Below are positions 54,420 through 64,000 of a stretch of DNA of 64,000 nucleotides, piece after piece. This stretch comes from Thermoplasmata archaeon (GTDB taxonomy: Archaea; Thermoplasmatota; Thermoplasmata; RBG-16-68-12; JAFNFQ01), in the NCBI GenBank assembly GCA_041489255.1, contig JBGPQV010000001.1, forward strand, positions 96,001-160,000. The letters are read 5' to 3'. How positions within the stretch are numbered: position 1 is the stretch's first letter; every line of letters begins with the position of its first letter. The translations under genes and the position numbers were made by a program. The notes under the pieces were generated by a model that saw only the letters and a program-made list of their open reading frames with translations, ran no database searches and was not told where the DNA came from.

Positions 54420-54483
54420 GCTGACGCTATCCGAGATGGCGGTAATAAGTGTTTGCGGTCTCGATGGCGGTCAGCGATCGCCC

Positions 54484-55047
54484 TCAGATTTTCCCAACGA
54501 GGTCCCAGCGAGGTTTCAGCGTCTTCTTGCCCGGCTCCCAGCTCGCGGGGCAGGCTTCTCTCTTGGTCTCCCTGACGTACTTCGCCGCCCGCAACTTTCT
54601 GAGCAGCTCCTTGACGCTCCTACCTATGTTGTTGTCGTGGATCTCAAATGCCTTGACGATCCCGTCTGGATCGATGACGAAGGTGCCCCTGTAGGCCACG
54701 CCTTCATCGCTTTTATAGACGCTAAATTCCCTAGCGAGGCTGCCCGTCGGGTCGGCGATCATGGGGAACCTGACCTTGTTCACGGTCTTCGAGGTGTCAT
54801 GCCATGCTTTGTGCGAGTGGACTGAGTCGGTGCTGGCGCTCAACACCTCGACGCCGAGTCTCTTGAACTGGTCATAGTTGTCGGCGAGTTCGCCGAGCTC
54901 CGTCGGGCAGACGAACGTGAAATCCCCGGGGTAGAACATGAGCACGACCCACTTCCCTTTGTAATCTGACAGATTGATTTTCTTGATTCCACCCTGGTGG
55001 TAAGCCCGCACCTCCAGGTCAGGGACCTTCTCGTTTATTGACACCAT
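54484..55047 (-). CDS. ahpC: 2-Cys peroxiredoxin
   Basis: FYPGDFTFVCPTEL, IGRS and EACPASW. Confidence 0.96.
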   Translation of the reverse strand: MVSINEKVPDLEVRAYHQGGIKKINLSDYKGKWVVLMFYPGDFTFVCPTELGELADNYDQFKRLGVEVLSASTDSVHSHKAWHDTSKTVNKVRFPMIADPTGSLAREFSVYKSDEGVAYRGTFVIDPDGIVKAFEIHDNNIGRSVKELLRKLRAAKYVRETKREACPASWEPGKKTLKPRWDLVGKI

Positions 55048-55194
55048 TTCGATTACGCCTTCCCGGTTCAATAGGCGGTAGCGGTTAATGAGTTTTTAGG
55101 ATTCCCGAGATGGTTGGCGTGGGTACCGCCACGGGAATAGGATTGATACTAAGCCACCGCAACCCTTTAACGATTGAGCACCATGGTGCCCGCC

Positions 55195-55269
55195 GGACCC
55201 GTGGCCTAGACAGGATATGGCACCGGCTTTCTAAGCCGGCGATCCCGGGTTCGAATCCCGGCGGGTCCG
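55195..55269 (+). tRNA. tRNA-Arg(UCU), copy 1
   Basis: GGACCCG/CGGGTCC acceptor; anticodon arm CCGGC-TTTCTAA-GCCGG; TTTAA box upstream. Confidence 0.93.
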
Positions 55270-55313
55270 TCTCAGACCGTATCGACCGCCCTGTTGGCTC
55301 TCGGATAATCAGA

Positions 55314-55703
55314 CTATTGAGAACGATTATGCTTCGTTGGTCTCGGCGGAGTCTTGCCGCGCAGGGTGCAGATGCTGAACTCGGCGTCCAAGGCAACTCT
55401 CCCACTCAGCTTCTTGACCTCTTCGAGGGCGGCGAGGGCACGTTGTTCGTCGAACGGATATACATCATTGGCTGCCCACACCCTCACATATGGATTGTCG
55501 TGGTCTAGGAGCGAGTTCAAGGCTTGCTTGCCCTCATCTCCAGCTCTCTTCAGTCCGCGTGCCGCCGCAATGACGCGCCTAGCGTATCGATTCACCGTCA
55601 GTGGATGTGAGTGAGCGTCACACGCGGCTCCGTACTTGATTGCGGCATCGACATAACGAGCCTTCAGTCGGGCGACGGCCCGAGATTCGTCTTGAATGCT
55701 CAT
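55314..55703 (-). CDS. DUF2019-like helical protein (putative immunity protein)
   Basis: YVDAAIKYGAA...ALNSLLDHDNPYVRVWAA...ALAALEEV; paralog of 56030-56410. Confidence 0.7.
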   Translation of the reverse strand: MSIQDESRAVARLKARYVDAAIKYGAACDAHSHPLTVNRYARRVIAAARGLKRAGDEGKQALNSLLDHDNPYVRVWAANDVYPFDEQRALAALEEVKKLSGRVALDAEFSICTLRGKTPPRPTKHNRSQ

Positions 55704-55789
55704 GGCCGCCACTCGCCCCCTGAGATCATCTCGAGTACCTGCCAACCTCAACCCGAGTACCCATCATAAGATTTCCCGATGGTTTACGC

Positions 55790-55854
55790 CCTAGACAGGA
55801 TATGGCACCGGCTTTCTAAGCCGGCGATCCCGGGTTCGAATCCCGGCGGGTCCG
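55790..55854 (+). repeat. 5'-truncated tRNA-Arg(UCU) copy (att-like repeat)
   Basis: Identical to tRNA nt 11-75; also shares the TCTCAG trailer with copy 1. Confidence 0.92.
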
Positions 55855-56029
55855 TCTCAGTCCATATAAACCGGCGTCATTCGAGCGGGATTGAGCGAAC
55901 ACGACTGATGCGCTTCCAGCCTCTGACCCTGAAAAATCCCCTTCCCCACTTCCAAGGGAGCAGCCCTCGATACTTCGCCTTCAGGCGAGAAGGATTCGAC
56001 GTGGACTGGGGTCTCTTTGATCCCCACTC

Positions 56030-56410
56030 TCAGGGGTGGAGCCGCCCCGCCCGCCACTCCCGCAAGACCATCTTTGCATTGAAGCCAACAATGCTTTTCT
56101 CCCTCGTCAAGGCCTCAATCATTTTCGTTGCTTCCGCTTCGTGATACTTCAGGTATATGCTCGCTGCGACCAAACGTACCCAAGGATTCGAATGCTCTAG
56201 TAGCGCATGAATCGCGTGCCGTCCGGCTTCTCCTTTCTTCTCCAAGCGCTTCCTGAGACTATCATAACGCTTGTACTGCTTGTTCGTCGTCTTGTAGTCG
56301 GCCGCATCGGCCGCAGCTCCATGCTTGGTGACTGCGTCCACGAACTCTTCGACCAAACTCGAGATGGATTCCGGATTGCGCAGAATGCGACTCTTCACCC
56401 GCGGCGGCAT
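56030..56410 (-). CDS. DUF2019-like helical protein (putative immunity protein)
   Basis: LVEEFVDAVTKHGAA...ALLEHSNPWVRLVAA...NAKMVLREWRAGRL. Confidence 0.75.
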   Translation of the reverse strand: MPPRVKSRILRNPESISSLVEEFVDAVTKHGAAADAADYKTTNKQYKRYDSLRKRLEKKGEAGRHAIHALLEHSNPWVRLVAASIYLKYHEAEATKMIEALTREKSIVGFNAKMVLREWRAGRLHP

Positions 56411-56505
56411 TGGCGTTGGCGGGATATTAAGGTTGTATGGAACCGGGGGGAAAAGAAACTCCCGCCACCGCCACGGTTCGACGAGTGAATACCATAACGC
56501 CCCCC

Positions 56506-56580
56506 GGACCCGTGGCCTAGACAGGATATGGCACCGGCTTTCTAAGCCGGCGATCCCGGGTTCGAATCCCGGCGGGTCCG
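56506..56580 (+). tRNA. tRNA-Arg(UCU), copy 3 (full length, identical to copy 1)
   Basis: 75-nt identity to 55195-55269; upstream TATA-equivalent degenerated to TTCGA. Confidence 0.88.
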
Positions 56581-56739
56581 TCTATTCCCGAAGAAGGATA
56601 AAACTAATCAACCGTTTAGGCCAAAGTGGTCGTTCGACCTCTTTTCCTTTGGTTCCTGTCCCCCCAAGCTCCTGCCTGGAAACGGGCGGGGACACCTTTC
56701 CTCTTTTATACATTGGATTTATTGCCGCAATCGATTCAT

Positions 56740-56997
56740 ATGCCGAAGAAAGACTATCAGGGATATTTGTCTGTGATTGGGGAGGTGCTCAAACAGGATG
56801 CACTGGTGTTGAAGGCTGAAGTTGCGGGGAAGAAATCTTACGATGAGGGAACACTCACCGGCTATGCTCTCGCTCTCGACACCATGTTAGATTATCTTGA
56901 AATGTTCAACCTGAAACCTAAGGATTTAGGTTGGAAAGACTTCATTCCGGAGCGTGATTTATTGAGTGGCCGCAAGCCCATGAAAAGAAAGAAATGA
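56740..56997 (+). CDS. AT-rich orphan small helical protein
   Basis: MPKKDYQGYL...YDEGTLTGY...DFIPERDLL; visibly lower GC than the flanks. Confidence 0.65.
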   Translation: MPKKDYQGYLSVIGEVLKQDALVLKAEVAGKKSYDEGTLTGYALALDTMLDYLEMFNLKPKDLGWKDFIPERDLLSGRKPMKRKK

Positions 56998-57322
56998 GAA
57001 GTTAAGTCACGTTTCATGTTTCAGGGCAAGGGAACGATACGGAATCCGAATTGCAAGTAGGGAGTAGGGACTCGCTCTCCCGCACTCGGATCGAGGGCGG
57101 GGACACCATTGCGTCTCACCTCCCTTGACCGCGCCTGGCTTCCCCGAACCCAAGCTGTGATCGCAAGCGCTCGGACGATTATGTTCACGCAGCCCTGTCA
57201 CGTCCTCTACGTCGCCGGCATGCCATCGGCGACGCGCTCACTCGATGATTCGGGCCTCCACGGGGAACGATCCTTTTCCGCGTCTTTCCAACACGGGAAA
57301 TGCCTCGCTTTTTCGGAAGGTC

Positions 57323-57360
57323 CACCTCGTTCTCTCCTCGTTCACACCTCGCTCTCACCT
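57323..57360. repeat. 11-bp degenerate tandem repeat (about 3.5 units)
   Basis: CACCTCGTTCT CTCCTCGTTCA CACCTCGCTCT CACCT. Confidence 0.7.
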
Positions 57361-57539
57361 GATATAGAGGCTTTACACTCGCCTTTCGAGGCTTTCTGAT
57401 CCTCGGCATACACGCGGGCATGGCGGCGATCAGCCCTCAAAAACCGCCAAGAACGCTGATTCTCCGCGAATCAATTAAGAGGAGGATGCGCGCATGACTT
57501 TGCGCCGTTTCACCTCGGCGGGAATCGGGGGAGAGGATC

Positions 57540-58127
57540 ATGGCGAAGATAACGAACATATTCGGTACCAAGTTCCGCGGTCGGATAGGCAAGGACATGG
57601 TCGCGACGTCGTGGAAGGGGCACGAGTACCTGCGCACGTACGTCGTCCCGCACGACCCGAAGACGGAGGACCAGCTGGCGCAGAGGGGCCTGCTCGGGAA
57701 GGCGGTGGAGGCATGGCGGGAGCTGTCGAAACCGCAGACCAGGTTCTTCAACGCCCTGGCGCACGGGATGTCCGGGTACAACCTCTTCATCCGCAGGCAC
57801 ATCAGGGCGGCTGTCGACGGGCGGGAGCTGGAGCTCCCCGCCGTGATGAGGTGGCGGACGGAGGGCGGGCAGCGCATGAAGGACGCGAGGCTGGTGGTCG
57901 CGCACGACGGACGTCACGTCTTCAACGACGACCTCGGGGACGGCGTGATCGAGATCGCGCTCACGAGGTCGGACGCGCCGTACAGCTTCGAGCTCAGGAA
58001 GGGACACCAGGAGGAGGTCGTGAAAGTATTCGAGAACGAACTGCAGGTTGACTTGCTGGCGGTCCTGGAGAGCGAGGCATTGGGCATCAAGCTCGTCCCG
58101 GACACGCCGGATCCGAAAGCACCATGA
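57540..58127 (+). CDS. DUF6266-like protein
   Basis: FRGRIGKDMVATSWKGHEYLRTYVVPHDPKTEDQLAQR...W..L...SGYNLF; strong SD GGGGGAGAGG. Confidence 0.65.
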   Translation: MAKITNIFGTKFRGRIGKDMVATSWKGHEYLRTYVVPHDPKTEDQLAQRGLLGKAVEAWRELSKPQTRFFNALAHGMSGYNLFIRRHIRAAVDGRELELPAVMRWRTEGGQRMKDARLVVAHDGRHVFNDDLGDGVIEIALTRSDAPYSFELRKGHQEEVVKVFENELQVDLLAVLESEALGIKLVPDTPDPKAP

Positions 58128-58238
58128 CGTGCAAGAGCTGGCGGGTCACACCGTCTGAGGTCGCTTCCCCCGCGCACTCTGAGAATGGATATCAGGAATC
58201 CCGCAACGAGGATGATCATTTCCATCGGCAATATCCGG

Positions 58239-58619
58239 GGTTCTGTTGAGCCAGGGCGAGCCTGACCGCTCCGTTGAATCTTCTCCAAGGAGTTCCTCAC
58301 CCGGGTCACCGCCACGTAGACTATCGCCTTCGTGACCGGATCTATGGCCACCCAGACGTAGCAGTCCCGCCTGCCCTCCATGAGGGGCGCCTCGTCCACG
58401 ACTACGATATCGGGCAGCCCCCCTTGGTGGAACATGCCCGCCATGGCCGTCCCGAACTTCTGTATCCAGCCCCAGACAGCCAGGTGGCTTCTCCTGCGCA
58501 CAACACCTTTTTCTTTCAGGAGACCTATCAGACCTTCGGTCCCACTCGCTTCTGGCATGTTTGATTACAAAACTGCATCAGGAGTGAAGGGACTTCCTTT
58601 TCGCTAACTTGACAGAACC
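58239..58619 (-). mobile_element. internally deleted IS6-family element with a transposase remnant
   Basis: Ends GGTTCTGTTGAG / CTTGACAGAACC; fragment RSHLAVWGWIQKF...VVVDE...YVWVAIDP. Confidence 0.85.
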
Positions 58620-58669
58620 GGAGGATGGGCGGCACAAGTATCTTATGGCGGCGTTGCCAATGCTTCATC

Positions 58670-59557
58670 ATGTGGGGTCATGGCGTTCGTGAGGGCCCGT
58701 CTTCTGCGTTTGTGTTGTCCGCGCTGATCGCCGCGGCATTGATCATCTGCGCATTTCCGGATTCTACGGCGGCGTCAGGGGACAAGCCGTCGTGGAGCGT
58801 TGGGGACTATTGGGAATACGATGGTTGGAACTACCCCTACGTCTTCAAGCAAAGGGTTGAGGTCAAGGGCGAGGAGACGTTAATCCAGAACGGGAGGAGC
58901 TATTCCGCCTTCAAGCTCTTCTTTAACAGTACCCTATCCCTCGGACCCGAAGTTGAGACGTATACATACTCCCATTGGTACCAATCATCCGACTTATCCC
59001 TCCTCAGGTTAGAATCCAACATGAGCGCCATAAACGCCACCGCCACAGTGACTTACGACCCGCCATTGCCCGTATTCCAATTTCCTATGGAGGTCGGCGA
59101 GACGTGGACATCGTCAAGCAACATCGTCATGAACAAGACTTGCACGAATTGCACCCTTATCGTACCAACGAACCTCAACAGGGAAATCACTTCAATCGTC
59201 GACCTCACCCTGACCTTGAATATGAGTGGACAAGGACAGACGCGCACATTCAGAACCTACGTGCTTAAGGAGTCATGGACGACGCCCGGCCACTATCTCT
59301 CTTATTACTCGGATGACGCCGGTTTCTGGGTCAAGCGCGAAGCATTCGCTGACAACGGCACAAGGATGATGGAGTATTCCTTGACATCATTCGGCTATGC
59401 GCTAGCGCCCGCCCCGCCAAATACGATAATCATGGTAATCATCATCGTCATCGTGGCCTGTGCGATTACCGTATTCATCATCCTGATTCGGCTGCGAAGA
59501 AGGTCAGCTGCGAGCCTGCCTCGGTCCGAGGACGAGACTGAGCCGCCACTCCCCTAG
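58670..59557 (+). CDS. secreted beta-rich protein with a C-terminal membrane anchor
   Basis: Signal peptide, PSWSVGDYWEY, FQFPMEVGETW, C-terminal TM followed by RLRRR. Confidence 0.75.
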   Translation: MWGHGVREGPSSAFVLSALIAAALIICAFPDSTAASGDKPSWSVGDYWEYDGWNYPYVFKQRVEVKGEETLIQNGRSYSAFKLFFNSTLSLGPEVETYTYSHWYQSSDLSLLRLESNMSAINATATVTYDPPLPVFQFPMEVGETWTSSSNIVMNKTCTNCTLIVPTNLNREITSIVDLTLTLNMSGQGQTRTFRTYVLKESWTTPGHYLSYYSDDAGFWVKREAFADNGTRMMEYSLTSFGYALAPAPPNTIIMVIIIVIVACAITVFIILIRLRRRSAASLPRSEDETEPPLP

Positions 59558-59713
59558 TAAAAATCCCGTAATCCCAAAGCAAGAATGAAAGAGGGAGGAT
59601 ACCGCCATAATCGCATGTTCGAACGTGAGTATCCTTCCTCTACACCATTTGCTCCATTCATCTTGAAGCATGACGGAATCGACCGCCGTGAGACAGTAAT
59701 GATTTTCACTAGG
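59553..59713. repeat. 161-bp nested inverted-repeat element (MITE-like or structured RNA)
   Basis: CCTAGTAAAAATC / GATTTTCACTAGG ends; inner AGAGGGAGGATAC / GTATCCTTCCTCT. Confidence 0.55.
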
Positions 59714-59745
59714 CCGCGCATTCGCCCCTCGGCGAGGGCACATAG

Positions 59746-60792
59746 ATGGACGCAAGAAGGAAGAGACAGCACCTGAAGCATCCGAGAATCGAAATCGAGG
59801 CGGGCAGGCGCACCGCTGGCGAGCTCCTGGAGGACATGGCGGAGACCGCCTTCCAGGGAAGGAAGATGGGCGAGGCCTTCGCCGTATGGAAACAGATGCT
59901 TTCCGAGAGGAACACGACCGTCTTCATGGGACTGGCGGGCGCGATGGTGCCTGCGGGCATGGGCCGCCTTGTATCGTTCCTAGTTGAGCGGAGAGGCATC
60001 GACGTCCTCGTGACGACGGGCGCCGCCCTCTCGCATGACCTGTACCAGGCACTCGGCCGCCAGCACTTCATGGGCACGCCGCAGGTCGACGATGATGAGT
60101 TGCAGAGGCTCAGGATCGACAGGGTCTACGACACGTACACCGACGAGGACGGCCTCTACGCGGCGGACAAATGGGTCATGCGCACCCTCCCGGAACTCCT
60201 CGACGACCACACACCATACACCTCAAGAGAGATTGTCGAGGTCATAGGGCGGGAGGTCAACAAGATGAAGCACGGGCGCGGCTCCCTGCTCGCGACGGCC
60301 TACAGGTCGAAGCTCCCAATCTTCGTGCCCGCGTTCGGGGACTCCAGCATCGGATTCGCGCTCATGTTCGCGAACCGAAAACGAAAGAGGAACATCGTCG
60401 TGGACATGATGAGAGACGTCGATCAGACCTGCCAGATCACTGAGCGTGCGGGAAAGACCGGGGTCGTCTTGATAGGCGGCGGTGTCCCGAAGAACTACAT
60501 TCAGCAGACCGCCGTCGTGGCGGGCTACGAGACGGACAAGGAAATGATGCACAAGTTCGGCGTGTCGATCACGACCGACTCGCCGCAGTGGGGCGGACTG
60601 AGCGGCTGCACGTTCGATGAGTCGAAGAGCTGGGGCAAGTACGACGTGAACGCTGTGTTCGCCACATGCTACGCCGACGCCACCATCGCGCTCCCGATGC
60701 TCGTCAACGGGCTGGCAGAGTGGAAAGGCCTGAAAAACAGGAAGCCGCCGAGATTCGATTGGAGCGGCAAGCGATTGAAACTCACGTACTGA
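59746..60792 (+). CDS. dys: deoxyhypusine synthase
   Basis: GLAGAMVPAG, GDSSIG, GGGVPKNY, GGLSGCTFDESKSWGK and DATIALP. Confidence 0.95.
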   Translation: MDARRKRQHLKHPRIEIEAGRRTAGELLEDMAETAFQGRKMGEAFAVWKQMLSERNTTVFMGLAGAMVPAGMGRLVSFLVERRGIDVLVTTGAALSHDLYQALGRQHFMGTPQVDDDELQRLRIDRVYDTYTDEDGLYAADKWVMRTLPELLDDHTPYTSREIVEVIGREVNKMKHGRGSLLATAYRSKLPIFVPAFGDSSIGFALMFANRKRKRNIVVDMMRDVDQTCQITERAGKTGVVLIGGGVPKNYIQQTAVVAGYETDKEMMHKFGVSITTDSPQWGGLSGCTFDESKSWGKYDVNAVFATCYADATIALPMLVNGLAEWKGLKNRKPPRFDWSGKRLKLTY

Positions 60793-60880
60793 CCTCCTGT
60801 CGCGAGGACTGGGCCATCGCGAACCCACGAGCAAAAGTAGATAAATGAACCGTTGATACGAGTGAAATGCCGAGGTCTTG

Positions 60881-60988
60881 ATGAAGCGCAGCTCTAGAGC
60901 GTGGAAGAAAAGAGGAAAGCAGCGCTGGAAGTGGCGCAAGAAGAAGATGCGCCGCCGGAAGCGCGAGCAGAAGATGAGACAGCGCTAG
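60881..60988 (+). CDS. rpl41e: ribosomal protein L41e (eS32)
   Basis: MKRSSRAWKKRGKQRWKWRKKKMRRRKREQKMRQR*; below the ORF-track size cutoff. Confidence 0.9.
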   Translation: MKRSSRAWKKRGKQRWKWRKKKMRRRKREQKMRQR

Positions 60989-60999
60989 CGTTGCGCCGT

Positions 61000-61173
61000 G
61001 GGGACGTAGGCTAACCTGGTAGACTGGCGGGCTCCAGTTATGGACGTGAACGGCAACGGGTTTGCTGACTCCGTGATGACTGACTGGAGCTGTGACCCTG
61101 ATTCCGTGTCAGGTGGGGTCGCACCCCACCTGGTGGAAACCCGCTGACCTGGGTTCAAATCCCAGCGTCCCCA
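61000..61173 (+). tRNA. tRNA-Trp(CCA) with a 101-nt intron (61038-61138)
   Basis: GGGGACG/CGTCCCC acceptor; CCA at 61034-61036; T-arm CTGGG-TTCAAAT-CCCAG. Confidence 0.93.
61046..61095 (+). ncRNA. box C/D guide RNA inside the tRNA-Trp intron (Cm34/Cm39)
   Basis: Guide CGGGTTT + D' CTGA (61065-68); C' GTGATGA (61073-79); guide CTGGAGC + D GTGA (61092-95). Confidence 0.85.
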
Positions 61174-61286
61174 CTCAAATTCTCCAATAGCGGGACTCGA
61201 ATCCATTCTTTCCCATTCCGACATCTTGCGTCGATACTTTAAAGACACCGACTCTGATGTGTGTAAAAATAGGGGATGACAGATTT

Positions 61287-64000
61287 ATGTCGAAGGATTC
61301 GCACATTCGGGCTCGCTTGATGACTGTCGTTGTCGCGTCTGCGATGGTGCTCAGCCTATTGCTCGTCTCGAGCGGTAAGACTGGAGCGCACACGGGAGAT
61401 TGGATTGATTCGGCCTGGACCACGTCCCCGCCGACGATCGATGGGTCCATGGCTGCGGGTGAATGGTCCGACGCCGCTTCAGCTGACCTGGGGGCCATCC
61501 CGGGGAACGCGTTCCTGGCATATCTCCTGGTCAAGAACGACGCGAACTTCCTCTACATAGCCTATGATGCCGTCGGGGATGCCACGGTGGACTCGATGGA
61601 TGAAGCGGCCGTGTCTTTCGACACGGGCCATGACGTCACCACAACCGTGGGAGGCGAGAGTGAGTTCTCCTGGGGTCCCGGAGCGAACAACGGGCAGGCA
61701 CATCTCGTGTTCGATGGTTCTGGATGGAGCACCGAGGACAGCCCCTTCGACACGGGTCTGCCTAATCACGCGGGACTCGCCAGCGCATTCGGTTACGGGC
61801 CGAGTGACCTCAACGCGCTCGACCATAGAATCTATGAGCTCCAAATTCCGCTTGCACTGCTGGATGCAGTCCCGACTGATGTGATCGGCTTTCTGGGCGC
61901 AAGTGAGCCGTCCCCCGGAGTATGGGACGCGGGCACCGGCTACGATTGCTGGCCTGCCGCCCTGACGGGCCCTCCTTCCTTGGTGGACTACGGCGATCTA
62001 AGGATAGGCCGGGCGCCCATGGCTGCCGACCTCGACATGAACCCACCGTCGCAGGTCGGACAAGCCCTTCCCTCATCGAGCGCCGACTACACAATCACCG
62101 TGGTGAACCGCGGGACTGCCAATGATATCTTCGAAATGCAGGTGATGTCCGTCTGGGTCACCGACCTGTTCGACTCAGGAGGCGTGAACCCCCTCGTCGA
62201 TAGCGACGGGGACTTGATCCCCGACACGGGGAGCCTCGGCCCTGGGGCGAACGTCCAGATCATCGCGCGGGTGAACACTCCGGCGTCAGGCACATGCGAC
62301 GATGCTCTGATCACCGGCACGTCTTCGAACGATCCGTTGACCTCGAACACCGCCGTCGTGAGCACGTGCCTCACGGGAGCTGGCCTGAATCCGCCTCATG
62401 CAGACTCCGGAATCGACACGGATCTGCCGGCGAATGGTCTCTACGACGAGCTGCAGATCGATGTCGGCGTCATGGTAGGCACAGACGGCTTCTATGACGT
62501 CGCAATCGACCTCTACGATCCTTCTGACGTCTTCTTCATCACATCCGGCAGCAATTACAACTACCTCTCCACCGGTCCCCAGATCGTGTCGGTCTTCCTG
62601 CAGGGGGCAACGATCTACGATAGCGGCTTCGACGGCCAGTATGTGGCGTACATCTATCTTTACGATGATTTCGGAAACACGCTGGACATCGGGATGTATG
62701 TCACGGCATCCTATATGCACACCGATTTCGACGGACCCGATGCGCTGCTGAACCCGCCGCATTCCGATTTCGGGATGGATACCGATTCCCCGCCGAACAG
62801 CCTATACGATGAACTATGGATCAATGTCGGCGTCATGGTGAGCGTCGATGGCTATTACGAGGTCGATGTCGCTCTCTACGATCCTTCTGACATCTTCTAC
62901 ATTACATCCGCCGTCAACTACAGCTACCTCCCCACCGGCCCTCAAAGCGTGTCGGTCATCCTTCAGGGACTGGATATCTACGACAGCGGCTACGACGGGC
63001 AGTACGTGGCGTACATCTACCTCTATGACGACTTCGGCAATCCCCTGGACAACGGGATATACGTCACCTCGTCCTACGCGCACACAGACTTCGACGGACC
63101 GGGTGGCTTGTTCAATCCGCCGCACAGCGATCACGGCATCGACACCGATGTCCCACCAAATGGGCTGTACGACGAGCTCGTGATAGATGTGGGCGTGACC
63201 GTCACTGAGGCCGGGACCTACGCGATAAGCGGCCCCCTCTTCGACCAGTTCATGAATTTCATCGCATTCAACAATACGGTCGTTGATCTGGCTATCGGAA
63301 ACCAAGTCGTCCCCCTCGCGTTCTCGGGGCTGCAGATCTTCCTATCTGGACTCGATGGCCCCTATACCACGTCATTAGCACTCTCCGACCTCAACGTCAC
63401 CCTGGACTCAAACACCTACACCACGGGCGTATACAGCTGCACCGATTTCGACACGCTGCCCGGCCGGTTCGAGCCGCCACACAACGACCGCGGCCTGGAT
63501 CTCACTGTGCCCGCCGACGGCCTTTACGAGTTCCTTGAACTGGCGATCATAGTGAATGTGTCGGAGGCTGCCTCCTTTGAAATCGATGTAGAACTGTACG
63601 ACTCGACCGGCATGAACTACATCCTCTCGACGAATGTGATCGAGGACCTTGACTTCGGGTTGCAGACTGTGCCGGTCAGGCTGGACGGGCTCACGATACG
63701 CAACTCTGGATTCGACGGACCCTACGAGGCGGACCTATACCTCATCAGCGATTCCATTACAATCGACGTTGACATTTACGTGACTCAGGCATATCTGCAT
63801 TCAGACTTCTCCCCAGAGGGTGCCGCATTCACCCCGCCATACTCCGACTGGACCGTTGACTATGATGTACCTCCAGACGGCAAGGCCGACCTCCTTCTCG
63901 TCGAAGTGAACATCGACGTCATGATTGACGGGCCCTATTCCGTCATGGCCATGCTGGTGGCGTCCGGTTCGATATTCATCGAATTCACTGAGGTGCGACA
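61287..64000 (+). CDS. large secreted repeat protein, partial (runs off the window)
   Basis: Signal peptide MSKDSHIRARLMTVVVASAMVLSLLLV; CBM9-like PPTIDG..GEWSDA; ~120-aa PPHxDxGxDTDxPxNGLYDEL repeats at 62391, 62754, 63117, 63474 and 63834. Confidence 0.88.
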   Translation, partial: MSKDSHIRARLMTVVVASAMVLSLLLVSSGKTGAHTGDWIDSAWTTSPPTIDGSMAAGEWSDAASADLGAIPGNAFLAYLLVKNDANFLYIAYDAVGDATVDSMDEAAVSFDTGHDVTTTVGGESEFSWGPGANNGQAHLVFDGSGWSTEDSPFDTGLPNHAGLASAFGYGPSDLNALDHRIYELQIPLALLDAVPTDVIGFLGASEPSPGVWDAGTGYDCWPAALTGPPSLVDYGDLRIGRAPMAADLDMNPPSQVGQALPSSSADYTITVVNRGTANDIFEMQVMSVWVTDLFDSGGVNPLVDSDGDLIPDTGSLGPGANVQIIARVNTPASGTCDDALITGTSSNDPLTSNTAVVSTCLTGAGLNPPHADSGIDTDLPANGLYDELQIDVGVMVGTDGFYDVAIDLYDPSDVFFITSGSNYNYLSTGPQIVSVFLQGATIYDSGFDGQYVAYIYLYDDFGNTLDIGMYVTASYMHTDFDGPDALLNPPHSDFGMDTDSPPNSLYDELWINVGVMVSVDGYYEVDVALYDPSDIFYITSAVNYSYLPTGPQSVSVILQGLDIYDSGYDGQYVAYIYLYDDFGNPLDNGIYVTSSYAHTDFDGPGGLFNPPHSDHGIDTDVPPNGLYDELVIDVGVTVTEAGTYAISGPLFDQFMNFIAFNNTVVDLAIGNQVVPLAFSGLQIFLSGLDGPYTTSLALSDLNVTLDSNTYTTGVYSCTDFDTLPGRFEPPHNDRGLDLTVPADGLYEFLELAIIVNVSEAASFEIDVELYDSTGMNYILSTNVIEDLDFGLQTVPVRLDGLTIRNSGFDGPYEADLYLISDSITIDVDIYVTQAYLHSDFSPEGAAFTPPYSDWTVDYDVPPDGKADLLLVEVNIDVMIDGPYSVMAMLVASGSIFIEFTEVR

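Follow-up and report, generated by a model that had tools for sequence, protein, structure and literature searches.

The locus described here lies in a 64,000-nt stretch of DNA from a Thermoplasmata archaeon (the window) and is, with fair probability, an archaeal polyimmunity (orphan-immunity) islet at tRNA-Arg(UCU), in which copies of the tRNA gene would act as recombination substrates and DUF2019 genes would provide antidotes against foreign RHS toxins. In the mechanism that we propose, RHS-repeat polymorphic toxins from other archaea of these sediments would be neutralised by the short, HEAT-like helical proteins of two DUF2019 genes, D1 and D2, which would bind the C-terminal toxin domain, and the present genome would hold the antidotes without that toxin domain. 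An insertion at the tRNA, of att type or illegitimate, would have left the partial tRNA copy, T′, as its scar. The three copies, identical over 68–80 nt and with homologous upstream regions, would then be substrates mainly for homologous recombination or gene conversion, by which units could be inserted, deleted, permuted and allele-swapped between strains. Both orders, D1-D2 and D2-D1, could be derived from one circular unit entering either tRNA copy; for this we infer a recombining enzyme and circular intermediates.

Layout of the locus and the tRNA gene copies

The earlier note had described three identical copies of tRNA-Arg(UCU), the middle one truncated at its 5′ end, with a single antisense gene in each interval. 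ARAGORN, Rfam and the blocks of exact identity bore this out in both coordinates and copy structure, and one antisense ORF was found in each of the two intervals (Table 1). The complete copies both scored 64.6 bits with the Rfam tRNA model and the 5′-truncated copy (55798–55854) scored 29.8 bits; no Rfam family besides tRNA was above threshold within 54900–59800. Copies 1 and 3 were exactly identical over 80 nt (55193–55272 and 56504–56583), and copy 1 and the partial copy over 71 nt (55205–55275 and 55790–55860). T′ is without the first 10–11 nt of the tRNA and has six extra 3′ bases in common with copy 1. A 22-nt piece from the 3′ part of the tRNA occurred three times in the window, against none expected from 100 shuffles.

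Flank comparison indicated that the upstream regions of the tRNA copies are mosaics of three types. The distal 21 nt of U1 are identical to the native upstream region of the sister genome G001 and the related contig L030, and its proximal part belongs to another type, which was found before other copies too. U3 also appeared in the repeat-family listing (family D1), with 90% over 120 nt. The distal ~85 nt of flank c have their homologue on the metagenome contig L031, in the native 3′ flank of an immunity gene that belongs to a toxin locus.

Table 1. Features of the tRNA-Arg(TCT) locus and its surroundings (positions in the window).
Feature	Position	Strand	Description and basis
AhpC-type peroxiredoxin gene	54484..55071	-	NCBIfam AhpC, 5e-79; left edge of the variable spot
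U1, region upstream of tRNA copy 1	55150..55193	+	Mosaic (flank listing, segment BLAST)
T1, tRNA-Arg(TCT) copy 1	55194..55271	+	Complete (ARAGORN, Rfam 64.6 bits)
Flank a, after T1	55272..55313	.	Starts TCTCAG, as does the flank after the partial copy; ~20 further bases similar
D1	55314..55751	-	DUF2019/HEAT-like putative orphan immunity-type gene; 145-aa ORF, true start perhaps ATG at 55703
Junction b	55752..55789	.	D1 start to partial tRNA; 37/38 nt to 100% identical in L032
T′, 5′-truncated tRNA-Arg(TCT)	55790..55857	+	From tRNA nt 11/12; read as a putative recombination scar and swap point
Flank c	55858..56029	.	tRNA-proximal part resembles flank a
D2	56030..56410	-	DUF2019 putative orphan immunity gene, 126 aa (Pfam, AF2 model, Foldseek, toxin-adjacent homologue)
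U3, region upstream of tRNA copy 3	56411..56504	.	Also holds the D2 promoter region; ~70% homologous to U1 over ~45 nt
T3, tRNA-Arg(TCT) copy 3	56505..56582	+	Complete (ARAGORN, Rfam)
Ra	56648..56713	+	Copy of the dispersed intergenic repeat R (GC hairpin plus T-tail); insertion point in L032
85-aa ORFan	56740..56997	+	After copy 3, in low-GC DNA (GC 0.46 against ~0.57 around)
Rb	57075..57115	+	Second, partial R-type hairpin after the ORFan (repeat comparison)
IS6-family transposase remnant	58289..58522	-	NCBIfam transpos_IS6, 1.9e-5, 24.5 bits against a cut-off of 125; model positions 31–107 of 202 only

A third, AT-rich orphan gene after copy 3 was also part of the earlier description. Such an ORF is present and has the low GC content claimed, and it is not delimited by tRNA copies and matched no family. 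It was conserved in the related contig L032 with 92.6% nucleotide identity; it had no Pfam or NCBIfam family, belonged to two protein clusters only, and its Atlas scores were 0.85.

The repeat R beside this ORFan has at least 21 copies in the genome, which also adjoin genes for a disulphide oxidoreductase, a thioredoxin-type protein, a rhomboid protease and a surface protein. At Ra, L032 is longer by 1.9 kb, with a third DUF2019 gene and with a PIN gene preceded by a small ORF; this extra segment is flanked by two copies of R and represents a parallel gain or loss. The repeat was considered as an attC-like cassette boundary and this was ruled out. Because its neighbours include housekeeping genes, none of five predicted hairpin pairs showed a compensatory change and no Rfam family matched, R is regarded as a general intergenic terminator-like repeat that is also usable for homologous recombination.

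DUF2019 genes and their link to an RHS toxin

D2 belongs to DUF2019 both by its Pfam match (PF09450; 3.2e-10, 40.4 bits against a gathering cut-off of 23.3) and by its fold. The AF2 model of D2 had a pLDDT of 89.6 and six helices, and its top Foldseek match in the PDB was the DUF2019 protein RPA1889 (2i9c; E 6.9e-4, TM 0.79/0.82, rmsd 2.0). The matches of D1 to HEAT_2 (5.7e-5) and DUF2019 (0.0016, 18.8 bits) were both under the Pfam cut-off, and a family profile matched it at 1.1e-48. The two proteins shared 30% identity (E 2e-16), in agreement with their earlier description as diverged paralogs. A search for sequence relatives in the PDB gave stathmin as the sole match, which was judged spurious. 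NCBIfam profiles gave no family for D1, D2 or the 85-aa ORFan; PADLOC gave a single weak match, of D2 to HamA (E 0.018), and none for D1 or the ORFan. The plasmid search gave one match, on a Hymenobacter plasmid among hypothetical genes, which was uninformative.

In this genome, DUF2019 was found at this locus only. Within the order, 3 of 79 genomes had the family; in a sample of 401 genomes from the phylum, this genome was the single one that had it. In metagenomes, it comprised 3144 representative clusters at E ≤ 0.001.

The link to a toxin came from two metagenome contigs. On L031, the ATG of a 129-aa DUF2019 gene, the product of which is 81% identical to that of D2, overlaps the stop of a 2730-aa ORF in the same orientation, and the last 666 aa of this ORF matched RHS_repeat at 1.3e-22. 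The C-terminal domain of this toxin (~220 aa) had no Pfam match, and its tail has an EWHH motif. D2 and the L031 immunity gene shared 88% nucleotide identity; outside D2, no stretch of L031 and this genome exceeded 84%. On L032, 108 C-terminal residues of an L031-type toxin were kept as a fragment directly upstream of its copy of D2 (75% identity, tblastn 2e-47). For the complex predicted between the window's D2 and the L031 toxin tail, the score was 0.72, and the best of three controls reached 0.02; such a score is a model confidence and not a measurement. The runs had 100% contact agreement and a partner pLDDT of at least 89, and the predicted interface involves residues 274–291 and 310–320 of the toxin (numbering of P0156). 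A mark of 0.72 was reached by 58 of 80 solved complexes and by 2 of 110 mismatched pairs, counts that hold only roughly here, with our own alignment in use.

Toxin adjacency and a toxin remnant in related contigs, together with the predicted complex, support the view that D1 and D2 encode immunity-type proteins. That they are orphans is supported by the searches with the toxin: the 2730-aa protein had no tblastn match in the window, and its last ~170 residues had none in the genome (96.5% complete), whose RHS genes lie on four contigs. The earlier note had likewise seen neither toxin nor integrase in the window, and the gene search was empty there as well. Its immunity reading gained the evidence given above; the likeness of DUF2019 proteins to immunity proteins, which it had called known, was not found in the literature searched, where DUF2019 is mentioned in two papers that do not deal with immunity. 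A cognate toxin of D1 was not found, and none of the public RNA runs held the stretch. D1 and D2 may confer protection in vivo.

DUF2019 is a family of unknown function, and the role proposed for it here is immunity to an RHS-borne toxin domain that lies outside all Pfam families. Archaea, like gut Bacteroidales, may stock antidotes against the toxins of their neighbours, which bears on competition among uncultured sediment archaea.

Strain variation and the origin of the array

The window was compared with the three related contigs (L030, L031 and L032) and the sister genome, a set that contains few independent rearrangements. The sister genome was 95–96% identical over the left 54 kb; at the locus it has one tRNA-Arg and no DUF2019 gene, and a cation antiporter gene stands in place of the islet. 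The order in L030 is tRNA-D2-tRNA-D1. In L032 it is D1-T′-D2-toxin fragment-D1′-tRNA, followed by a fourth DUF2019 gene, and one tRNA-bounded unit there comprises two genes and the toxin fragment. The earlier note had counted an array fixed in all relatives against its own reading; the content, number and order of the units differ between these close relatives, so the arrangement is not fixed.

The segment comparison of the strains revealed that identity jumps exactly at the tRNA copies. To the left of T′, the window and L032 were 97.7% identical in D1, ~100% in junction b and 100% in T′, whereas to the right they were 70% identical in flank c and 81.5% in D2, which places a break at T′. T′ was 100% identical to the live tRNA gene in the window, L030 and L032. 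The peroxiredoxin stretch (54448–55153) just upstream of copy 1 is a strain-specific insertion; the sister genome has ~88 nt instead and L030 lacks it. A 19-nt similarity between 55275–55293 and 59672–59690, at the right edge of the variable region, was 84% identical and within the range of chance, and was not used. In other genera of the order, the flanking genes were missing from all 11 further tRNA-Arg loci, so an ancestral state can be drawn only within the genus.

From the sequence, the mosaic upstream regions point to homologous recombination, which they fit better than a dedicated integron-like enzyme. Copy 3 is an entire tRNA gene preceded by homologous upstream sequence, unlike a typical attP scar. 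The 5′ boundary of T′, at tRNA nt 9–11, is discrete and was kept in both the window and L032. This sharp boundary and the shared 3′ flank look att-like, and would fit an integrase as well or better for at least some steps. With a shared length of 68–80 nt, homologous recombination should be a rare event.

An integrase acting in trans was the explanation favored by the earlier note: tiny non-autonomous cassettes, each comprising a tRNA att and one immunity gene, would be moved singly by a tyrosine integrase encoded elsewhere, and the tRNA would form an integron-like platform. We consider this rather unlikely. It agrees with the sharp boundary of T′ in two samples, with the 71-nt identity extending 6 nt past the tRNA, and with the same unit being found at different tRNA copies in the window and L030; the TCTCAG and the ~20 similar bases shared by flanks a and c are like related attP arms. 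The 71-nt block is also close to the 29–69 bp given for crenarchaeal att sites (PMC6563490). Four tyrosine recombinase genes were present in the genome, and one of them lies ~470 nt after tRNA-Leu(CAA), so tRNA-targeting elements occur in this genome. However, these four matches to the Phage_integrase family were on three contigs (two on one of them), none on the contig of the window, and no integrase was found in the window or beside any tRNA-Arg(TCT) copy of the genome. Among the 79 genomes of the order, the only integrase-like match near tRNA-Arg(TCT) was a short ORF on its 5′ side, in one genome, and the only integrase 3′ of a tRNA-Arg was at the CCT isoacceptor, in another. An exact scan for the 3′ half of the tRNA returned no IMG/VR contig and, among species-representative genomes, the sister genome only, so no element carrying this att was found.

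A site-specific enzyme would also explain neither the full-gene copy 3 with its homologous upstream region nor the upstream mosaics. The claim that an integrase builds the array found no linked enzyme in the window, the genome or the relatives searched, and the claim of one-gene cassettes conflicted with the L032 unit of two genes and a toxin fragment. A split (SSV-type) integrase reading through the tRNA copies was considered for the ORFs 55110–55508 and 55779–56144, which cross the copies, and was rejected; their protein sequence after the tRNA was not conserved between the window and L032.

There is a small chance of a tRNA-templated cassette system in archaea, in which sub-kb units of a tRNA-gene copy and one immunity gene would circulate and enter any resident tRNA copy by means of a trans-acting or pTN3-like integrase, the copies being kept identical as docking sites. 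The integrase of pTN3 reportedly has a homologous-recombination-like activity.

It is quite improbable that the locus is static debris of one or two larger elements (e.g., with an RHS toxin-immunity locus) that decayed at the tRNA, so that the copies would be dead scars and the strain differences would reflect differential decay. The toxin C-terminal fragment in L032 and the IS6 transposase remnant are what such decay might leave, and the locus lies at the edge of a ~13-kb stretch that is 72–80% identical to the sister genome, against 95–96% elsewhere. According to PMC5704250, bacterial tandems of this kind usually arise by CIME-type decay and subsequent accretion. However, decay alone cannot produce the opposite orders in which D1 and D2 stand in the window and in L030, nor can it account for a D1 that is 98% identical on one side of T′ and a D2 that is 81% identical on the other. 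T′ has no tRNA function and yet remained identical to the live gene in all three sequences.

The presence of the three copies in a single genome was also considered. An assembly artefact, in which strain variants were threaded through the conserved tRNA, is very improbable. The genome is a metagenome bin of 41 contigs, and the end of L032, where an inverted copy of the tRNA joins the interior of D1, looks like a contig-end artefact. In the public Logan data, the k=31 unitigs stop within the tRNA repeat, and the two unit orders have their junctions in common. These unitigs agree with the copy number; for the order in the window, the basis is the original assembly, and L032 provides a parallel. 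On the other side, the unitig depth in one run, which may be the source sample, was 14.4–15.5 for the flanks and both gene segments, about twice this (31.1) for the 5′ part of the tRNA and about three times (40.9) for its core. The pieces of both units were found with no differences in all four public runs, the junction b-T′-c was independently assembled in L032, two-copy arrays occur in L030, and a repeat of 68–80 nt is shorter than an ordinary read.

An origin in place, by tandem duplication of a tRNA-plus-gene unit and later divergence without horizontal input, would suit the common unit layout (tRNA, similar 3′ flank, antisense DUF2019 gene) and the homologous upstream regions of copies 1 and 3, but it is hardly credible with D1 and D2 at 30% identity against 100% for the tRNA copies, both genes absent from a 95–96%-identical sister, D2 at 88% nucleotide identity to an immunity gene that another organism has at its toxin locus, and DUF2019 nearly missing otherwise from the phylum sample.

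The locus is an unusually small and clean natural case of units bounded by copies of a live tRNA gene, with strain variants at hand. It could help to decide whether integrases, homologous recombination or the two together build such arrays. Active mobility of the units, if it were found, would mean that archaea have an integron-like principle, and a true tRNA-templated cassette system would be functionally analogous, in warfare among archaea, to integrons and rAID.

Relation to known systems

The islet resembles the rAID-1 and AID-1 arrays as these are set out by Ross et al. (bioRxiv 10.1101/471110), namely horizontally acquired, consolidated arrays of orphan immunity genes against the toxins of other strains or species, with repeats between the genes and a strain-variable content. 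The AID-1 of gut Bacteroidales is also at a tRNA gene, on an element inserted at tRNA-Lys. The criteria given there for rAID-1 are a 5′ XerD-like recombinase, at least two co-directional downstream genes and low GC. The archaeal islet has two to four genes; in the window, two co-directional immunity genes were found, but no recombinase stands at their head and the GC content across D1 and D2 is not skewed low (0.55–0.585 against 0.59 for the genome). Its repeats are copies of a live tRNA gene, whereas those of rAID are integron-like intergenic motifs, and an archaeal RHS toxin takes the place of a T6SS effector.

The heterogeneous polyimmunity loci described in PMC3482391 (Zhang et al., 2012) share with the islet the clustering of stand-alone immunity genes without a toxin, the all-alpha repeat fold and the RHS-borne toxin domain; Imm-HEAT is listed there with Ntox34, and HEAT repeats with Tox-REase-7. 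In contrast, DUF2019 is not named and PF09450 has no occurrence in the main text of that paper, and the toxin tail found here is without a Pfam family. The EWHH motif of the tail recalls Tox-WHH (HNH/EndoVII; PMC3482391), which is a resemblance only. In the orphan arrays of C-terminal fragments and immunity genes downstream of rhs or cdiA, as described in PMC3967940, a displaced toxin fragment followed by an immunity gene is the hallmark unit, and L032 has such a unit with its C-terminal fragment. However, the window has neither an rhs gene nor a toxin fragment, and its units are bounded by tRNA copies and not by the conserved end of an rhs core.

CIMEs and tandem accretion at tRNA or tmRNA genes (PMC5704250; Dehalococcoides ssrA islands, PMC3146451), as well as tandem integration in archaea (PMC6563490; PMC8371274), are described as stacked units between direct repeats of the 3′ part of a small-RNA gene, without an integrase of their own and with a strain-variable number. 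The same structure was found here, with the D1 unit between T1 and T′ (71-nt repeat) and the D2 unit between T′ and T3 (68-nt repeat), each containing a DUF2019 ORF only. The units here are 0.5–0.7 kb with one gene, whereas those systems are multi-gene islands; moreover, at one boundary stands a second tRNA gene that is complete and has an upstream region of its own, and no cognate integrase was identified. The archaeal review among these sources names module exchange through homologous recombination of elements integrated in tandem.

Like integrons, the islet has serial, small, co-oriented, promoter-proximal single genes that vary among strains. Unlike integrons, it was found with no IntI gene, no attI and no attC-type site; no integrase gene is on the contig of the window, no attC-type palindromes were identified, and the boundaries are tRNA copies. 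We regard the probable islet as a variant of the rAID and orphan arrays and of CIME accretion, in an archaeon at a tRNA hot spot.

Copies of tRNA-Arg and the genes between them

Of the three tRNA genes that ARAGORN recognized in the window, two were tRNA-Arg(TCT). These full copies (T1 and T3) were identical over 80 nt. T1 and the 5′-truncated middle copy (T′) shared 71 identical nt, which ran from tRNA nt 11/12 to a point 6 nt beyond the 3′ end. A 22-nt piece of the tRNA occurred three times in the window, with zero occurrences expected. The copies and antisense genes had been described accurately in the earlier note; coordinates, copy structure and the single ORF per interval were all reproduced.

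Features of the tRNA-Arg locus and of the toxin-bearing metagenome contig L031
Feature	Location	Strand	Support
T1, full tRNA-Arg(TCT)	55194-55271		ARAGORN; Rfam 64.6 bits
D1, ORF between T1 and T′	55314-55751	antisense	best Pfam match HEAT_2
T′, truncated tRNA-Arg(TCT)	55790-55857		Rfam 29.8 bits
D2, ORF between T′ and T3	56030-56410	antisense	Pfam DUF2019
T3, full tRNA-Arg(TCT)	56505-56582		ARAGORN; Rfam 64.6 bits
Repeat R, two copies	56648-56713 and 57075-57115		
RHS-repeat protein, 2730 aa, environmental archaeon	L031 78-8270		RHS repeats 1.3e-22
Truncated second DUF2019 ORF, after the immunity gene	L031 8733-8987		

The window sits in a 388-kb contig of a bin of 41 contigs (96.5% complete). 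In unitigs of the public run X1, possibly the source sample, the depth was 14.4 for the left flank, 15.1 for both the D1 and the D2 piece, 15.5 for the right flank, 31.1 for the 5′ part of the tRNA and 40.9 for its core. These depths fit two full tRNA copies and one partial copy in one genome. The pieces of the D1 and D2 units showed no differences in all four public runs examined. The X1 unitigs stop within the tRNA repeat, and either unit order would use identical junctions; thus the evidence for the order in the window is the original assembly, together with the related metagenome contig L032, in which the join D1-b-T′-c-D2 (b and c being flanks) was assembled independently.

D2 passed the Pfam cut-off for DUF2019, and its model (pLDDT 89.6, six helices) resembled the DUF2019 structure 2i9c (TM 0.79/0.82). 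D1, 30% identical to D2, fell below the cut-off, and the third gene, an 85-aa ORF in low-GC DNA 3′ of T3, was an ORFan. R hairpins, rather than tRNA copies, bounded this third gene. A profile built from ten relatives matched 3144 representative clusters (E ≤ 0.001), most of them 110–140 aa long. PADLOC, NCBIfam and a PDB sequence search added nothing on the family of these proteins.

R is a dispersed intergenic repeat of ~50 nt, with a C-rich 5′ box, a 6–9-bp GC hairpin with a variable loop and a T-rich tail. The genome contained 21 copies at E < 0.01 (nhmmer), often in same-strand clusters between co-directional genes; R was found on its contigs C3, C6, C7, C11, C14, C15, C17 and C18 and in L032. 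It had no Rfam family and no compensatory changes. In this genome, R is a general intergenic repeat that looks like a terminator-plus-promoter spacer. It also flanked a 1.9-kb segment by which the window and L032 differ through gain or loss. A 195-aa protein (window 57540–58127) with a weak DUF6266 match (E 0.012) belonged to a family that had at least seven other loci in this genome (30–53% aa identity) and was also represented by several loci in the sister genome.

Probable immunity function and orphan status

The decisive evidence on the function of D2 came from metagenome contigs encoding its relatives. In L031, a 129-aa DUF2019 gene with 81% aa identity to D2 begins at the stop codon of the 2730-aa RHS ORF. 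This ORF bears the usual motif closing the RHS shell, followed by an additional C-terminal domain of ~220 aa, in which hydrophobic segments precede a region with an EWHH motif; the domain matched no Pfam family even at E ≤ 10. The RHS ORF and the adjoining DUF2019 gene have the textbook toxin–immunity layout. L032 retained the final 108 residues of the toxin (75% identity, 2e-47) directly upstream of a D2 copy, and this is an orphan unit of a toxin-tail fragment plus an immunity gene.

The predicted complex of the window's D2 with the toxin tail scored 0.72 vs. 0.02 for the best of three controls. Of 80 solved complexes, 58 came up to this mark, as did 2 of 110 mismatched pairs; these counts are only roughly valid here, as our own alignment was used. 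Predicted contacts agreed 100% between runs (partner pLDDT ≥ 89) and fell at about residues 274–291 and 310–320 of the toxin-tail sequence P0156, downstream of the EWHH motif. The motif resembles the Tox-WHH entry in the available text of PMC3482391, which is only a lead.

RHS proteins were present on four other contigs of the genome. The last ~170 residues of the toxin had no match in this genome at 96.5% completeness, and no DUF2019 gene was found in it outside the locus. Across the order, 3 of the 79 genomes had DUF2019 (two above the cut-off, this genome included), as did one of 401 genomes of a phylum sample, namely this one. When L031 was compared with the genome, D2 was the only stretch above 84% nt identity, apart from two short pieces (54 and 72 nt at 83–91%); the remainder reached 64–78% in repeat domains. 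Therefore, D1 and D2 are putative antidotes without a poison, and they were probably taken up from toxin-bearing lineages.

Layout in relatives and probable exchange of units

The sister genome was 95–96% identical to the window across 54 kb on the left. It had one tRNA-Arg(TCT), with neither a DUF2019 gene nor a peroxiredoxin gene ahead of the tRNA, and a cation antiporter gene separated its tRNA from the gene for deoxyhypusine synthase. To the right of the tRNA, identity fell to 72–80% for ~13 kb and then reached 90%. The low-identity segment (window 59679–64000 plus contig C1 160001–168500) carries genes for deoxyhypusine synthase, a large surface protein and transporters; the tRNA stands at its edge, and the segment was either replaced or evolves fast. 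The AhpC-type peroxiredoxin gene (window 54448–55153) was inserted between a conserved 115-aa gene and the tRNA promoter, where the sister genome has ~88 nt; the metagenome contig L030 also lacked this gene.

L030 was arranged as conserved left gene-tRNA-D2-tRNA-D1, the opposite order to the window and without the peroxiredoxin gene. L032 was arranged as D1-T′-D2-toxin fragment-D1′-tRNA-R-D3-R-PIN gene with a small upstream ORF-R-ORFan, in which D1′ was 76% identical to D1 in nucleotides and D3 was a fourth DUF2019 gene. Relative to the window, identity in L032 was 97.7% for D1, 100% for b and T′, 70% for c and 81.5% for D2, and in L030 it was 97.7% for D1 and 90.8% for D2; it shifted at the tRNA copies. 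The single fixed arrangement that would have spoken against serial capture was not seen among the relatives. The strict single-gene cassettes of the earlier note did not hold, because one tRNA-bounded unit of L032 contained D2, the toxin fragment and D1′.

At the end of L032 (4704–4781), a shared word of 11 nt joined an inverted tRNA-Arg copy, with A for G at position 1, to the interior of the D1 coding sequence; this is either a genuine inversion or an artefact of the contig end. A copy with that A1 variant also heads the D1 unit of L030. The PIN-domain gene of L032 (Pfam 3e-7) and its small upstream ORF, which had no Pfam family, had an R repeat on either side within the extended islet (592–1309); we read them as a VapBC-like pair.

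The window can be written as U1-T1-[a D1 b]-T′-[c D2 U3]-T3-d and L030 as U-T-[c D2 U3]-T-[a D1 ...], where U denotes upstream regions and a–d flanks. One unit, as a circle recombining with either tRNA copy flanking the other unit, would give both orders. T3 was accompanied by ~45 nt of homologous upstream sequence, and the upstream regions were mosaics: in U1 of the window the distal part was native and the proximal part of a second type, and in the second copy of L030 this proximal type was joined to U3-type distal sequence. Although it lacks tRNA function, T′ was 100% identical to the gene in three sources (window, L030 and L032). The additional 1.9 kb of L032 lay between two R copies, and at that point the window has one hybrid copy. 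Together, these features favor homologous recombination or gene conversion as the process now at work. The 5′ end of T′ was sharp, at tRNA nt 9–11 in two samples, identity ran 6 nt past the tRNA, and flanks a and c were similar for ~20 more bases, which argues for an att-type origin. Insertion at the tRNA would have created T′, and the identical copies probably now recombine, mostly via the cell's homologous machinery, so as to swap, permute and delete antidote units. Such exchange was supported by the mosaics and the breaks in identity.

An integrase acting from elsewhere in the genome had also been proposed. Four tyrosine recombinase genes were indeed found, all on other contigs and one adjoining tRNA-Leu(CAA), and none was tied to the tRNA-Arg(TCT) locus. 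In the order, where 37 of 79 genomes had integrase matches, none lay 3′ of tRNA-Arg(TCT), and the 3′ half of the tRNA occurred in no IMG/VR contig. An integrase with relaxed, homology-dependent activity is possible, as described for pTN3 in the available text of PMC8371274.

On contig C18 (53296–54344), a 463-aa tyrosine integrase ORF lay directly after tRNA-Leu(CAA) near the contig end, probably an ordinary integrated element. On contig C6 (127372–127498; L034 15373–15499), the last 22 nt of tRNA-Arg(TCT) occurred a second time, together with the sequence following T3 and an R repeat. This stretch was 78% identical to window 56563–56690, had no adjoining tRNA gene, lay near an rve-type transposase fragment at the contig end, and may be a translocated scar. 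An exact 23-nt copy of the tRNA-Arg(CCT) 3′ end on contig C25 (34125–34147) may be an att scar. The likeness (16/19) of 55275–55293, after T1, to 59672–59690, where the variable region ends on the right and the sister genome becomes homologous again, may be chance.

Comparison with known systems

The rAID-1 type was rejected because the locus had neither a head recombinase nor low GC (criteria as in the available text of 10.1101/471110). An rhs displacement array was rejected for the window, which contained neither an rhs gene nor a toxin fragment, and an integron was dismissed as no IntI gene, attI or attC-type site was identified. A survey from 2019 reportedly covered archaeal polymorphic toxins. 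DUF2019 was not found in print as an immunity family; the two papers found to name it did not deal with immunity, and PF09450 was absent from the main text of PMC3482391, whose supplements may list it. A non-exhaustive literature search found no archaeal orphan-immunity array, and units shorter than 1 kb that are delimited by entire copies of a live tRNA gene were likewise not found in print. The component features have been described: orphan-immunity gene arrays, tandem accretion at tRNA/tmRNA genes, integrase-less att-flanked units (CIMEs) and HEAT-type immunity proteins all appear in the available text of earlier studies (10.1101/471110, PMC5704250, PMC3146451, PMC3482391, PMC6563490, PMC8371274).
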